From NCBI GenBank assembly GCA_965277805.1, contig OZ255842.1:800001-864000 (forward strand): 64,000 bases of DNA, in the 5' to 3' direction. This DNA comes from Candidatus Lustribacter sp. (GTDB taxonomy: Bacteria; Vulcanimicrobiota; Vulcanimicrobiia; Vulcanimicrobiales; Vulcanimicrobiaceae). The notes below the pieces were generated by a model. It ran no database searches and was not told the origin of the DNA. It saw nothing but the letters and a program-made list of their open reading frames with translations. A program made the translations under genes and the position numbers. Numbering within the stretch: position 1 is the first letter of the stretch; each line of letters starts with the position of its first letter. Of this stretch, positions 3,301 to 9,864 are shown piece by piece.

Positions 3301-3552
3301 GCCTGGACGCGATCTTATGAGGCAACGTACGTTTTGAAACCATCTCGAGAAGCCCATGCGCTTTCGCTAGCCTGCGAGTCGATCGACGCTTTATCGGCGT
3401 TGCAGCTGTGCTCGCAGAAACCCGGATCGTAAGTGTGGCTCTTTTCATTCGTTCGAGCGCTACGCTGTCCTGATCGAACACACGACGTAACGCATAGCGG
3501 AAGAACGCAGTCGTATGGGCACATTCGCGACTCCCGATATAGAAAAAACCCC

Positions 3553-3572
3553 GCCCCAACGGGATTCGAACC
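3553..3572. repeat. att site, distal copy of the tRNA-Glu 3' end
   Basis: Identical to 7927-7946; preceding block 3518-3555 matches 7868-7905 at 33/38. Confidence 0.85.
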
Positions 3573-5840: not shown

Positions 5841-7133
5841 ATGACATTTAGAACTCCGAAGATCGATGACTTTATCGCTTGGAAGATCAATGGCGGTCAC
5901 ATTGCCGCGCTAACTGCAGCCGCCTACAAAACGGAACTCGAACGCTTTCAAGAATTTTTGAACGAAAAAGAAGAGCAAAAAGCGATTTGGGCTGCTGATA
6001 AGCACGACGTCAGCCAATTCCTTGCACTAAAGCGCCAAACCAACGCGCCAACGACGACGCATCGGATTTTTGCACCGATTAAAGAGTTCTTCAAATATCT
6101 TCAGCACGAGCAACTTAGATCTGATAATCCTACAACGGGAATAAGACTTGCACGGATCGCGCGCCGGAATGACTCGCGGGTCACGTTGGCTCGCGCGGAC
6201 GTGCAGAAACTCTTGAACGCGCCAACGGGACGGTTGGCAGTGCGCGACAGAGCCATTATTCATTGCTTCTGTTCTGGTTTAAAGCGCAATGAAGTCCAGG
6301 CACTTTTGATCGGCGACGTAGACCTCGAAGCACGTAGGCTCAAGGTCGGCAATCGATTTGTGCCGCTTTCGGAACCAGCATGCGTTGCGCTCGCTGCCCA
6401 TTTGCAGGCGCGGCAAGCGAAGAGGTCGGCGATCTTATTCACTGCCGCTGCGAGGCATGCCGCGACTATGGGCTTGCGGCAATTGTGGCACGTCGTAAAA
6501 TCCAACGCGATGCGAGTCGGCCTCGACGAAGAGACAAGCCCGGAAACGCTAAGAACAACCTTTGTCGTCCACGCCATGGAAGATGGCATCACGTTCTTGG
6601 GCCTAATCGATGCTATCGGAACATATAATGATTTTTGGTTGCGCGACCTTTTAGAAGCCGCAAAGCCGGAATTCGCAAAGCGCAGTGCCGATCTTTCCGT
6701 GGGCGCTTTGGCGCATCGTGCTTATGGGCCGGGAAGAGAATATGATTTCTACATCGATCTCGCCTCGGAGATCGCTAAGGCTCAGGCGAACGTCTTCGTT
6801 ATTGATGCCTACATCGATGAAGATTTGTTTAACTTGTACGTTAGCAAGATTCCGGCTACGGCGAAGACACGGGTTTTGTCGATGAAGTTCGACGACAATG
6901 TCGAGAAAGTTGCATCGATGTTCTCAAGTCAACAGCCAATTCAGTTGCGAAAAACCAAGCATATTCACGATAGGCACATATTCATAGATGATCGTGGCTG
7001 GGCAGTTGGACAATCTATCAAAGAGGCGGGGAAGAAGAAGCCCACTTACCTCATTGAACTATCCGAACCTACGTTAAGCGCCGCGAGAGCCGCTTACGAG
7101 AGCCTCTGGAGCGCTGCTACCGTACTCATTTAG
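5841..7133 (+). CDS. XerC/D-like tyrosine recombinase (degenerate active site) fused to a C-terminal PLD-like nuclease domain
   Basis: SAM-like N-domain (FFKYL...DNPT), RDRAII, SPETLRTTF; C-terminal VFVIDAY...HIHDRHIFID...VGQSIKEAGKK. Confidence 0.8.
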   Translation: MTFRTPKIDDFIAWKINGGHIAALTAAAYKTELERFQEFLNEKEEQKAIWAADKHDVSQFLALKRQTNAPTTTHRIFAPIKEFFKYLQHEQLRSDNPTTGIRLARIARRNDSRVTLARADVQKLLNAPTGRLAVRDRAIIHCFCSGLKRNEVQALLIGDVDLEARRLKVGNRFVPLSEPACVALAAHLQARQAKRSAILFTAAARHAATMGLRQLWHVVKSNAMRVGLDEETSPETLRTTFVVHAMEDGITFLGLIDAIGTYNDFWLRDLLEAAKPEFAKRSADLSVGALAHRAYGPGREYDFYIDLASEIAKAQANVFVIDAYIDEDLFNLYVSKIPATAKTRVLSMKFDDNVEKVASMFSSQQPIQLRKTKHIHDRHIFIDDRGWAVGQSIKEAGKKKPTYLIELSEPTLSAARAAYESLWSAATVLI

Positions 7134-7269: not shown

Positions 7270-7839
7270 TTGAAAATAAAAAGCGTTATCGCGCGCAAGT
7301 TTAAACGGTTTGCCGACTTGGAGATCGTTGACTTGCCGGAGTCTGCTAGGCTTGTTGTTCTTGCTGGCCCAAATGGCTTCGGAAAGTCATCGCTATTTGA
7401 CGCATTTTTCACTTTCCATCACTTCTCAAGCGCGGGCAATCTCAACCGTGGGGTTCTTTCCGATGAGCGTGTTGTTGCAGTGATTCTCACTGCCTGTGTC
7501 CTGGTGAAGTGTAGCCCGAACGAGGCTCCGGGCCTTCGTTGGGTCAGCGCCATATGCCGTGGCGCGTTTCGGCTTCGTGATCTTCATGAGCACTTTCGCA
7601 GAATCGAGGGTTGTGCGAATCCGAGCCGGCCAGGTGCCCGTGAACACTTCTCGAAAATCCGGTTGCACGATCTGCGTCATACTCACGCGTCCCTCATGGC
7701 GATGGCCGGGCAATCACTTGACGTGATTTCGAAGCGACTCGGACATTCCAACATCGCGATCACGGCCGAGAGGTACCTGTCCGTCTACACCTCGCGAGAT
7801 GAAGCGGCGTCGGAGGCCTTCGCTACCCTCCTACGCTGA
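7270..7839 (+). pseudogene. chimeric remnant: ABC/SMC-type AAA ATPase N-terminus joined to a tyrosine integrase C-terminus
   Basis: MKIKSV..FKRF..LAGPNGFGKSS (Walker A); IRLHDLRHTHAS...RLGHSNIAITAERY. Confidence 0.75.
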
Positions 7840-7845
7840 AGGTTC

Positions 7846-7863
7846 TGTGTCAGGAATGTGTCA
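7846..7863. repeat. putative integrase arm-type sites (TGTGTCA x2)
   Basis: TGTGTCA at 7846-7852 and 7857-7863, right after the integrase stop codon. Confidence 0.6.
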
Positions 7864-7892
7864 TGGAGGCACATTCTCGACACCGTACATAG

Positions 7893-7918
7893 AAAAAACC
7901 CCGCCGTAGCGAGGTTTT
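7893..7918 (-). terminator. intrinsic terminator downstream of tRNA-Glu
   Basis: Minus strand AAAACCTCGC-TACG-GCGGGGTTTTTT hairpin with U-tract. Confidence 0.75.
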
Positions 7919-7924
7919 GAGATT

Positions 7925-7997
7925 TAGCCCCAACGGGATTCGAACCCGTGTTACCGCCGTGAGAGGGCGACGTCCTAGGCCTCTAGACGATAGGGCC
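7925..7997 (-). tRNA. tRNA-Glu (anticodon CTC)
   Basis: GGCCCTATCGTCTAGAGGCCTAGGACGTCGCC-CTCTCAC-GGCGGTAACACGGGTTCGAATCCCGTTGGGGCTA folds as a cloverleaf; CCA not encoded. Confidence 0.97.
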
Positions 7998-8000
7998 GTT

Positions 8001-8669
8001 TTAAGCTCCCGGTGATGGACTCGAACCACCATAGGCAGAATCAGAACCTGCAGTCCTACCGTTAGACGAACCGGGATCACCATTCGATTTTCGAAGATTT
8101 CTGGCGGCGAAGGTATCAGTTTGACTGTGACAGTTGGGACAGAGCATCCGAAGATTCTCCAGCCGATGGTCGTCACGCACACCGTTGACGTGGTCGATTT
8201 GGATGCTCAGCGGGCGGCCCCTCCATTCACTAAGACCGCACCAGTCGCAACGGTTTACGATTATACCAGCTTTGAGCAAGCGGCGTTTGATGGTTAGCCG
8301 GCTCGTTGAAGTAGCGACGGCCTCCTCGGCCGTCCAGACCTTCGTCGGCTTGGGAACGATGCGTCCAGCCTTCACCGCTTTGGTCCATGAAGCGGATGAG
8401 AAGCCGAAACGGCTCCGGCACTCCCGATAGCTCGCGCCCCGGTAGTAACAAGACTGGATCTCGCCCCAGTCATATCGCCGCCTTGCCGCTTCGGAGAGTG
8501 CAGAGGGCGTCGCGACGACGATGTCGCCAAGCGCGATGGCCTTCTTCCACGTAGCGTGTGCTATCCCGAATCGCCTGTGGCAGCTGAGATAGCCATTCCC
8601 GTCGTCGATATACGCCTGCATCGCCTCCCAGTCGAAAAACTTGCGGCCATATTTCCCGTGCCTTCTCAT
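8001..8669 (-). CDS. HNH endonuclease with duplicated N-terminal helical repeat; ORF reads through tRNA-Gln
   Basis: CDWC...IQIDHVNG...NLRMLCPNCHSQT zinc-binding HNH motif; first in-frame stop at 8001-8003. Confidence 0.88.
   Translation of the reverse strand: MRRHGKYGRKFFDWEAMQAYIDDGNGYLSCHRRFGIAHATWKKAIALGDIVVATPSALSEAARRRYDWGEIQSCYYRGASYRECRSRFGFSSASWTKAVKAGRIVPKPTKVWTAEEAVATSTSRLTIKRRLLKAGIIVNRCDWCGLSEWRGRPLSIQIDHVNGVRDDHRLENLRMLCPNCHSQTDTFAARNLRKSNGDPGSSNGRTAGSDSAYGGSSPSPGA
8006..8076 (-). tRNA. tRNA-Gln (anticodon CTG)
   Basis: TCCCGGTTCGTCTAACGGTAGGACTGCAGG-TTCTGAT-TCTGCCTATGGTGGTTCGAGTCCATCACCGGGAG folds as a cloverleaf. Confidence 0.95.
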
Positions 8670-8683
8670 CGAACATATGTTCG
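8670..8683. promoter_or_regulatory. LexA (SOS/Cheo) box
   Basis: Perfect palindrome CGAACATATGTTCG matching CGAAC-N4-GTTCG, directly abutting the HNH start codon. Confidence 0.8.
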
Positions 8684-8796
8684 CATTAAGTTGTTACCAG
8701 CTTATTGCCGCAGTGTAAAGTTCGCCCGAGGCGGTATGATAGGGAGCCGGTGGGTGTGTGCCCGCCGCGGTCTTTCCGTAAGAGGAGTCGTTTTCG

Positions 8797-9864
8797 GTGC
8801 AGGCAGTCGTGCTGGTCGGTGGTGAGGGGACGCGTCTGCGCCCGCTAACGCTCGAGACCCCCAAACCCATGATCCCCGTCATGAACGTGCCCTTCCTCGA
8901 ACGCACGCTCGTGCGCCTCAAAGAGGCCGGTATCGACGACGTCATCCTCCCCGCCGGCTACCTGCCCGAGGCCATCACGAGCGCCTTCGGCGACGGCAGC
9001 CGCCTCGGCATGAGGGTCCGCTACGTGATCGAGGAGACGCCCCTCGGGACGGCCGGCGCACTCAAGAACGTCGAGCAGTACATCACCGGCCCGTTCTTCG
9101 TGCTCAACGGCGACGTCCTCACGAGCCTCGACCTGCGCGCCATGCTCGCCAACCACCAAGCTAAGGGCGGCGTCGCGAGCCTGCACCTCATTAAGGTCGA
9201 CGACCCGTCGGCCTTCGGCTGCGTCGTCCACGACGCTGACGGCCGCATCAGCGCCTTCGTCGAGAAGCCCAAGCGTGAAGACGCTCCGACGAACGAAGTC
9301 AACGCCGGCACCTACCTTCTTGAGAAGGCAGTCCTCGACGCGATCCCCGCCGGCCGCCCCGTCTCGATCGAGCGCGAAACGTTCCCCGAACTCATCGCGG
9401 CCGGCCAACGGCTCTACGCTTACACCACCGCCGATTACTGGATCGATTTAGGGAAGCCCGAGGCCTATCTCGGCGCTCACCGCGACATTTTCGACGGCAG
9501 AATGCCGCTCGGGCTGCAACCCGGGGTGAACGGGCCGGGTGCTAAGGGAGTACCTTCCTCCGCCATCATCCCGCCGGTCTTCGTCGGTCGCAACGTCCGC
9601 GTTGCCCCGGATGCGAAAATCGGACCATATACGGTTCTCGGTGACGATTGCGAGGTTGGCTCTGGTGCCGTGGTCGCCGACTCGCTCCTCTGGGATAACG
9701 TCGTCGTCGAAGCCGGTGCCAGCCTGGATTGGGCGATCGTCGCCAGCCGGGCGCACATCGGCGCGGGAGCCGTTGTCGGCCGAGGTTCGGTCATCGGTCA
9801 CGGAGCGGACATCGCTCCAAACGCAGCGGTCGGCGAAAACGCCCGCATCCCCGCCCCGGCCTAA
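8797..9864 (+). CDS. NDP-sugar synthase (mannose-1-phosphate guanylyltransferase-like)
   Basis: AVVLVGGEGTRLRPLT..PKP, FVEKP, C-terminal left-handed beta-helix. Confidence 0.92.
   Translation: MQAVVLVGGEGTRLRPLTLETPKPMIPVMNVPFLERTLVRLKEAGIDDVILPAGYLPEAITSAFGDGSRLGMRVRYVIEETPLGTAGALKNVEQYITGPFFVLNGDVLTSLDLRAMLANHQAKGGVASLHLIKVDDPSAFGCVVHDADGRISAFVEKPKREDAPTNEVNAGTYLLEKAVLDAIPAGRPVSIERETFPELIAAGQRLYAYTTADYWIDLGKPEAYLGAHRDIFDGRMPLGLQPGVNGPGAKGVPSSAIIPPVFVGRNVRVAPDAKIGPYTVLGDDCEVGSGAVVADSLLWDNVVVEAGASLDWAIVASRAHIGAGAVVGRGSVIGHGADIAPNAAVGENARIPAPA

Follow-up and report, generated by a model that had tools for sequence, protein, structure and literature searches.

The locus described here lies in a stretch of 64,000 nucleotides (nt), hereafter the window, from Candidatus Lustribacter sp. 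(contig OZ255842.1, positions 800,001 to 864,000). The window genome is a single contig of 5.53 Mb with 64.3% G+C. On the minus strand of the window, an open reading frame (ORF) of 222 amino acids (aa) encoding an HNH endonuclease (8001-8669; ATG at 8669, stop TAA at 8003-8001 included) contains an entire tRNA gene. This gene, tRNA-Gln(CTG), was placed by ARAGORN at 8005-8076 and by Rfam at 8006-8076 (49.3 bits), and is followed on the same strand by tRNA-Glu(CTC) at 7925-7997, found by both programs (56.2 bits; the Rfam gathering score is 29). Each tRNA is the sole genomic copy. The 5′ end of tRNA-Gln is the third base of HNH codon 198, and the last 24 codons of the ORF are tRNA sequence. The TAA falls 1-2 nt beyond tRNA-Gln, in the 7-8 nt spacer preceding tRNA-Glu. 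Sequence inspection and a terminator scan found neither a terminator nor a spacer between the ORF and tRNA-Gln. The first-pass annotation had described an HNH ORF without a stop before tRNA-Gln and with a TAA just past it, and ORF translation, ARAGORN and Rfam all agreed with this description. They also bore out, at 8670-8683, the palindrome CGAAC-ATAT-GTTCG that it had placed against the ATG: the sequence there is CGAACATATGTTCG, a perfect palindrome with a GAAC-N4-GTTC core that directly abuts the start codon at 8669. On the other side of the palindrome a divergent nucleotidyl transferase gene (8797-9864, plus strand; Pfam NTP_transferase, E 6e-50) served as the marker of the conserved locus. 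DNA contigs from three runs of one sample matched the window stretch, with no letter differences listed. Contigs X21-X23 were of low depth and unspecified library type, and were broken at the tRNAs.

By sequence and structural model, the protein carries the hallmarks of the HNH/His-Me finger nucleases, namely a beta-beta-alpha finger, a catalytic His, a conserved Asn and two CxxC pairs. Pfam PF01844 matched residues 143-183 (E 2.2e-4; 21.7 bits against a cut-off of 21.4), phrog_10822, “HNH endonuclease”, matched residues 122-196 (E 3.6e-28), and the best PADLOC model was “homing endonuclease” (E 1.3e-13). Residues C141, C144, D159, H160, N162, N172, C177, C180 and H181 were invariant across 42 aligned sequences. 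The zinc-finger core to which they belong (residues 141-184, positions 8118-8249, minus strand; CxxC...DH...N...CxxCH) was delimited from Pfam, the alignment, the model and the phrog match. The AlphaFold2 model had a mean predicted local distance difference test (pLDDT) score of 78.8 and a confident fold over residues 10-190, with core strands at about 148-163 and a core helix at 178-181 (pLDDT 80-95). Two three-helix modules resembling helix-turn-helix (HTH) folds were predicted, the first at residues 14-47 (8529-8630, minus strand; helices 14-22, 27-34 and 38-47; pLDDT about 90) and the second at residues 68-100 (8370-8468, minus strand; helices 68-76, 81-88 and 92-100), along with two further helices. 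An internal repeat, xDWxxxQ...G...C...FG...W.KA, occurred twice in the protein. The C-terminal tail (residues 194-222, positions 8004-8090, minus strand) reads ...NGDPGSSNGRTAGSDSAYGGSSPSPGA, is mostly encoded by tRNA-Gln and is predicted to be disordered (pLDDT below 50).

A sequence search of solved structures gave no match below E 0.1, and Foldseek searches of the Protein Data Bank gave none at E<=0.001, only weak HNH resemblances (McrA, Cap5). The second HTH-like module showed a weak Foldseek likeness to the bipartite HTH folds of paired domains and transposases, in all cases at E>0.5. Searches of NCBIfam gave nothing but matches far below the cut-offs (ZorE, IscB). The ratio of nonsynonymous to synonymous substitution rates (dN/dS) was 0.03-0.17 in all 12 of the 12 HNH pairs compared, which spanned every class of stop position described below, and 0.10-0.17 between the window gene and its three closest relatives.

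Conservation of the locus and position of the stop

We recovered 1610 homologues of the HNH protein at E<=1e-3. Relatives are encoded at at least 577 places in species-representative genomes, and the best 80 of these were almost all titled Eremiobacterota, Vulcanimicrobiota or WPS-2; titles were taken as deposited, and a few non-Eremiobacterota titles may represent binning errors. The window and these 80 places made up the genome locus set, from which two were left out as the motif pattern failed in them, leaving 79 usable loci. In 65 of the 79, tRNA-Gln(CTG) lay directly 3′ of the HNH gene, with tRNA-Glu(CTC) nearly always next; one of the remaining loci ran off its contig and 13 had no tRNA in the locus. 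Among metagenome loci (36 in total, some being duplicates of one another), the tRNA was adjacent in 29 of the 32 that were usable. Loci with two HNH copies were counted by the copy proximal to the tRNA. The abutment of the HNH gene to the tRNA is not a chance arrangement, since it recurs in so many loci of both sets, although these counts overstate the support because the sampled genomes are related and not independent. The nucleotidyl transferase gene was found as a divergent neighbour no more than 600 nt upstream of the HNH gene in 76 of 111 usable loci. Of 201 genomes sampled from the phylum, 83 had the HNH gene; the window's own family accounted for 80 (out of 113 genomes) and the other families for 2 (out of 87).

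Tandem HNH paralogues upstream of one tRNA-Gln were seen in L028, L044, L052, L056, L065, L069, L139 and L142-L145, the second copy of the pair often being shorter, with one HTH module. Six loci titled as Solirubrobacterales or Thermoleophilaceae (Actinomycetota; L072, L074, L075, L077, L079 and L080) formed a separate clade that did not adjoin tRNA-Gln. A GAAC-N4-GTTC pattern match was found upstream in L072, L075, L077 and L079, of which only the box in L075 (GAACATACGTTC) was checked by eye.

Of the 65 adjacent genome loci, 23 had the stop of the nuclease ORF before the tRNA, 15 had it within the tRNA and 27 only past its end; for the 29 metagenome loci the corresponding numbers were 10, 9 and 10. 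All “before” stops were 0-38 nt ahead of the tRNA. Reading into tRNA-Gln, as the first-pass annotation had noticed in the window, is thus common to many homologues and, being shared, is neither an assembly error nor a one-off loss of a stop, but the position of the stop is not conserved. The window's closest relatives, at 66-74% identity, had gaps from the HNH stop to the tRNA of 0, -21, -54 and -76 nt. In the alignment of 42 sequences, a tail spelled by the tRNA was seen in 12 of the 21 rows displayed, and among relatives its length and content varied with the reading frame.

Much of this variation followed from the reading frame in which the tRNA was entered. Two of the three frames of the window's tRNA-Gln are open throughout, while the third ends at a TAA in the D-loop. 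We measured junction length from the CPNCH motif to the tRNA and distinguished long junctions (about 90 nt) from short ones (39-80 nt), the window being short. At short-junction loci, frame 0 led to a stop within the tRNA in 19 of 24 cases, and frames 1 and 2 to a stop beyond it in 23 of 28. The “before” stops of long-junction loci lay 13-20 nt upstream of the tRNA in 24 of 29 cases, the other five being at 30-38 nt, and those at 13-20 nt are the TAG or TAA of the -10 box of a tRNA promoter (see below). In a phylogeny of 58 HNH cores, from which 20 rows had been left out because the pattern had caught the second repeat, stop classes flipped between sisters, for example L009 and L030 or L026 and L039. 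Read-through is to be expected of a gene that abuts a tRNA without a stop of its own when two of three frames are open. Since the stop class flips and dN/dS is low whatever the class, selection acts on the HNH protein and not on the position of its stop. Translation would end at whichever in-frame stop comes first, and for this reason the tRNA-coded tail looks like an incidental appendix and read-through like a by-product.

Promoters and damage-type operators

Long-junction loci formed a supported clade on the HNH-core tree (99/97). A promoter-like sequence, TTGCAA-N17-TAGTATAA, was found with its end 12-13 nt upstream of the tRNA in 30 of the 34 genome loci with long junctions and in all eight such metagenome loci, and the same promoter fronted the tRNA in alleles lacking the HNH gene. 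In long-junction loci the nuclease ORF crosses this promoter. A pattern scan found no promoter of this type in any of 52 short-junction loci, where there is no room for one next to the tRNA. In the window, the candidate promoter of the single-copy tRNA pair is TGGTATAAT, an extended -10 element inside the ORF (8260-8268, minus strand; codons G135-I136-I137), 184-192 nt upstream of the tRNA 5′ end. Among short-junction loci, the pattern TGGTATA[AC]T at A-G-I-I/L codons occurred in 16 of the 31 from genomes and 14 of the 21 from metagenomes (30 of 52), and it occurred in none of 42 long-junction loci; TGGTATAAT itself was found in all seven of the seven window-subclade members examined. It is spelled by rare codons, as ATA accounts for 2.0% of Ile and GGT for 13.5% of Gly codons in 737 long ORFs. 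Judged from these motifs, the tRNAs very probably have a promoter of their own, either within the nuclease ORF or at its end. The first-pass annotation had taken one transcript to be both nuclease mRNA and pre-tRNA; with such a promoter, this would be at most one of two transcripts.

TGGTATAAT also occurs about 48 nt upstream of the transfer-messenger RNA (tmRNA) gene in the window genome (C1:181267; tmRNA at 181324-181680). In addition, the 13 bases 5′ of tRNA-Gln at 8077-8090 (AAAATCGAATGGT, encoding K-S-N-G) are retained in four of the seven members of the window subclade, including L119, L124 and L125. They may be a tRNA leader element or a second promoter, or may merely reflect recent common descent.

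The palindrome in front of the HNH gene was compared with similar sites elsewhere in the window genome, which has 34 sites of the form CGAAC-N4-GTTCG against 6.2 expected from base composition. Sites with AT-rich cores precede recA, genes for an AlkB-like 2OG oxygenase, a class II ribonucleotide reductase, a dnaE2-like polymerase, an imuB-like Y-family polymerase and an imuA-like RecA-fold protein, a 152-aa ORF and the HNH gene. The recA box is TCGAACACAGGTTCGA and the lexA box is CGAACATACGTTTG, with one mismatch. Because the same motif fronts this classic set of SOS genes, CGAACATATGTTCG is, by sequence, the window genome's own LexA-type operator, as the first-pass annotation had proposed. 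The 152-aa ORF has no Pfam match and is directly abutted by a perfect LexA-type box (C1:2826461); it may be an undescribed SOS gene.

Conservation of the box was partial. Among 54 full-length tRNA-adjacent genome loci, an exact GAAC-N4-GTTC was found upstream of the HNH gene in 20, whereas 26 had only another palindrome, TGCCA-N6-TGGCA (allowing up to one mismatch), and eight had neither. A damage-type palindrome of one or the other type therefore precedes the gene in 46 of the 54. The distance from operator to start codon was 1 to 6 nt among the HNH relatives, and several HNH genes carried both palindromes in tandem. We examined the palindromes upstream of recA and lexA at L094-L097, L099-L102, L157, L158, L160, L162 and L163. 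TGCCA-N6-TGGCA also fronted recA in four genomes with that palindrome at the HNH gene. In two of these four it had only 10 and 8 sites genome-wide, three of which were at lexA, recA and the HNH gene. Every lexA examined carried both a GAAC-type box and TGCCA-N6-TGGCA, including that of the window genome (about 3634060-3634075), and G209 and G210 combined recA under TGCCA-N6-TGGCA with an HNH gene under a GAAC box. A simple switch of LexA motif between lineages was rejected on the basis of these two findings. TGCCA-N6-TGGCA may be a second damage-response operator in Eremiobacterota, bound by LexA or by a second regulator. Whichever regulator binds the palindrome, the nuclease gene, to judge by these sites, keeps company with recA and lexA.

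Downstream of the tRNA pair, a hairpin followed by a T run (7895-7918, minus strand) resembles a terminator 3′ of tRNA-Glu, but is weak as evidence taken alone, with two such sites in the region against 1.1 expected. Just downstream of tRNA-Glu, about 4.35 kb is flanked by the two copies of a direct repeat of 49 nt (80% identity; 3518-3566 and 7868-7916), and the distal copy continues into a duplicate of the 3′ end of tRNA-Glu. Between the repeats are two ORFs (5841-7133 and 7270-7839), one of the integrase family and one broken, with an AAA-type N-terminus fused to roughly the final 45 residues of an integrase domain. The bracketed 4.35 kb looks like a decayed integrative element at tRNA-Glu.

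Relatives and origin of the nuclease gene

The nearest named relatives of the HNH protein are phage nucleases. BLASTP gave 39% identity over 149 aa (E 2e-27) with hegA of Enterococcus phage Bop and 34% over 70 aa (E 3e-17) with F-TflIV of phage BF23. By sequence, the protein is thus a member of the F-TflIV-like phage HNH family, through a match limited to its C-terminal two thirds, that is, the homologous HNH core and the helices preceding it. The phage genes are also free-standing and lie in or beside tRNA arrays: Bop hegA is located between tRNA-Asn and tRNA-Ser, and BF23 F-TflIV about 950 nt upstream of tRNA-Tyr/Glu/Phe, while the relative in Streptomyces phage EGole lies about 1 kb from the closest tRNA. 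F-TflIV is said, going by the title of Akulenko et al. 2004, to be a site-specific endonuclease. Partial relatives were present in 260 phage records, none of which covered 80% of the HNH protein, and a plasmid search returned a single weak partial match. Unlike F-TflIV of phages T5 and BF23, the window gene is chromosomal and bacterial, occupies one fixed locus across a family, encodes two N-terminal HTH-like modules in place of a C-terminal extension, stands under a LexA-type operator and is fused onto a tRNA or its promoter. F-TflIV is named among HNH nucleases in PMC5714182.

Two further systems share part of this arrangement. SegB of phage T4 is a GIY-YIG homing endonuclease encoded in the T4 tRNA cluster; its homing has been demonstrated, and its recognition site includes the conserved motif of the T-psi-C stem-loop of tRNA genes, an example of a nuclease that exploits tRNA genes as a conserved target and promotes its own inheritance (PMC2330249). 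Like the window gene, it is free-standing among tRNA genes and absent from the same locus in relatives (PMC2330249), but it is a phage gene of another nuclease superfamily without SOS control, whereas the window gene is a cellular HNH gene for which homing is a proposal. In mycobacteria, five putative HNH endonucleases are reported among RecA-dependent genes induced by mitomycin (PMC8151990), and HNH genes of the 13E12 family are described as being under LexA (PMC4181829). These resemble the window gene in placing an HNH gene in the LexA/RecA damage response of a bacterium whose box is of the GAAC type. They differ in being multi-copy repeats and not a single tRNA-linked locus, and the passages on 13E12 in these papers describe no tRNA overlap. 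The architecture differs as well, Pfam reporting no DUF222-type region in the window protein.

No paper in the literature library searched mentioned LexA together with Eremiobacter, and none of those listed described an HNH gene that lies on a chromosome, is under SOS control and is fused to tRNA genes. In animal mitochondria genes are punctuated by tRNAs, and mixed tRNA-mRNA operons, such as the tufB operon, occur in bacteria. As in mitochondrial punctuation, a message and tRNAs here share DNA without a spacer, and tRNA processing could set the end of the message. In mitochondria, however, the arrangement is universal and functional and the stop is completed by polyadenylation, whereas here the position of the stop varies and transcription of the tRNAs probably starts from a separate promoter.

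The HNH gene is patchily distributed at its locus. Of the 113 genomes of the family, 33 lacked it, among them one from the same genus that is a single contig and 94% complete. The same-genus genome G145 and four other genomes of the family had tRNA-Gln and tRNA-Glu without an intact HNH gene; in three of these HNH-free alleles (L085, L086 and L088) the nucleotidyl transferase gene was upstream as in the window, and L087 retained a decayed HNH remnant (...APNRHSQ...). Elsewhere, there were many partial or stop-containing copies as well as tandem pairs. Presence/absence polymorphism at one locus and degenerate copies, both marks of a homing gene, were therefore observed. The G+C content at third codon positions (GC3) of the HNH gene, 69%, is below what is usual in the window genome, where the mark of an ordinary gene was set at 75-78% or more, and was counted as a selfish-type sign. 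The divergence of the HNH gene was only loosely correlated with that of the neighbouring gene (Spearman 0.52; 1275 pairs from 51 loci), with HNH identity falling to 56% where the neighbour was at least 90% identical. In the HNH-free allele of the same genus (L085:1400-1500), TGCGAACCTATTGCG stands where the window (8660-8700) has TGCGAACATATGTTCG. It may be a remnant of the operator left when the nuclease gene was deleted.

Our preferred reading, which we hold with slightly better than even confidence, is that of a long-resident, SOS-repressed nuclease gene of homing type that has become packed against a tRNA operon. It would be a LexA-repressed, free-standing gene of the phage F-TflIV kind, with two N-terminal HTH modules and a zinc-bound core, and would have long resided at one site in one family of Eremiobacterota (Vulcanimicrobiota), between the nucleotidyl transferase gene on one side and the tRNA-Gln(CTG)-tRNA-Glu(CTC) operon on the other. 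Packing against the operon would leave the gene without a stop of its own, so that translation would end at the first in-frame stop, be it the TAG or TAA of the promoter -10 box, the TAA of the D-loop, the inter-tRNA spacer (as in the window) or one further on. The tRNAs would most likely be transcribed constantly from the promoter embedded in the nuclease ORF (TGGTATAAT, 8260-8268), and the full nuclease message would be made only upon cleavage of LexA after DNA damage, continuing then into the tRNAs. As for the protein, its likeliest activity is cleavage of DNA at a specific sequence, in the manner of homing (selfish) endonucleases, and it would be made only in the SOS state, a time of active recombination. 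The suggestion of a selfish, tRNA-associated gene under SOS control, already made in the first-pass annotation, fits best with the phage F-TflIV/hegA kin in tRNA arrays, the patchy presence and the decayed and tandem copies.

Several results weigh against this reading, some against its promoter and others against its selfish part. A strict sigma-70 scan of 7700-8900 found no promoter, and no -35 element could be recognised for TGGTATAAT. The motif TGNTATAAT was not rarer than base composition predicts (16 seen, 20.4 expected) and was rejected as a mark of stable-RNA promoters, since only one of its 15 other sites precedes an Rfam RNA. Third-position conservation was likewise rejected as proof of an internal promoter: other blocks of the gene, IQIDHVN and RCDWC, are as conserved as AGII, and the signal is therefore not specific. 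Neither promoter type was found in 15 of the 31 short-junction genome loci. The RNA runs shared at most 0.07 of the sampled words, and one covered only 7928-7990 in tRNA-Glu, probably from other organisms; co-transcription, the internal promoter and SOS induction are read from the DNA. As to the selfish part, the HNH gene is single-copy, the low dN/dS values point to strong purifying selection, its divergence tracks that of the neighbouring gene, and its SOS control seems to have been retained across two operator types.

These last points are what would be expected had the gene been domesticated, as a vertically inherited and immobile member of the SOS regulon, engaged in repair, fork processing or damage-induced self-killing, with the tRNA adjacency as the frozen accident of an old insertion. 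There is one HNH copy in the window genome, purifying selection was seen in every pair, the locus is syntenic in 76 of 111 cases, and a damage-type operator is present in most full-length loci, though its type differs by lineage; in mycobacteria, moreover, SOS-induced HNH genes are on record (PMC8151990, PMC4181829). A domesticated gene would nevertheless not readily be missing from 33 of 113 genomes of the family, one of them in the same genus, nor leave decayed and tandem copies, nor fall to 56% identity beside a neighbour at 90% or more, and the named proteins closest to it are homing-type endonucleases that phages encode within tRNA arrays. We consider this explanation possible but on the whole unlikely. 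On the narrower question of whether the gene is still or was recently selfish, or has been domesticated, we lean only slightly to the former. That the ORF is a dead gene or an annotation artefact, a decaying remnant that has lost its stop and is not expressed, is barely credible. Decayed copies do occur elsewhere in the family and the Pfam score is barely above its cut-off, but the 222-codon frame is intact with all catalytic and zinc residues kept, dN/dS against the three closest relatives is low, the operator is perfect, the fold is confident over residues 10-190 and the DNA contigs of three runs agree with the stretch.

The first-pass annotation had further envisaged a switch by design, in which a single transcript is cut by RNase P at the 5′ end of tRNA-Gln, the stop is thereby removed and the nuclease is tagged through tmRNA, full-length protein being made only when processing is slow or induction strong. 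RNase P cleaves at tRNA 5′ ends, and non-stop messages enter trans-translation. The only stop in the window lies beyond the tRNA, the stop is inside or beyond it in 42 of 65 genome and 19 of 29 metagenome loci, and no terminator or spacer parts ORF and tRNA. Truncation after tRNA processing is possible, since RNase P RNA (256 bits), tmRNA (120 bits in Rfam, although ARAGORN did not detect it) and SmpB are all present in the window genome. In the window, and in roughly two out of three of its relatives, a damage-induced message may thus lose its stop and be passed to trans-translation, as a side effect. There is, however, no sign of selection for a switch, because a third of the relatives (23 of 65 genome and 10 of 29 metagenome loci) stop 0-38 nt ahead of the tRNA and the state flips freely between sisters, dictated by frame as expected under neutrality. 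Purifying selection is equal in all stop classes, and the model predicts a disordered tail. As the tRNAs are probably served by a separate promoter, their processing need not involve the nuclease message at all. The designed switch thus found no support and is improbable. We also regard as rather unlikely that the nuclease and the tRNA operon form a selected, interlocked unit, with the tRNA promoter in nuclease codons, the message ending inside a tRNA and RNase P setting how much of it stays intact. Were this true, nuclease output after damage would be gated by the state of tRNA maturation, and deletion of the selfish gene would remove the sole promoter of tRNA-Gln(CUG) and tRNA-Glu(CUC), a new form of addiction by promoter capture.

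Phages are known to have free-standing homing-type nucleases lodged among tRNAs, and mycobacteria to have SOS-induced HNH genes; here the two are joined in a bacterial chromosome, and the combination is fixed at a single site in one family of a phylum that has hardly been studied. Gene packing at this locus is extreme, with a tRNA promoter apparently within coding sequence and a protein C-terminus spelled by a tRNA gene. The operators described above give a first sketch of the SOS regulon of Eremiobacterota, including a possible second palindromic operator. Should the internal promoter prove real, a cell that lost the nuclease gene would lose with it the promoter of two single-copy tRNAs, and the selfish gene would therefore be hard to lose.

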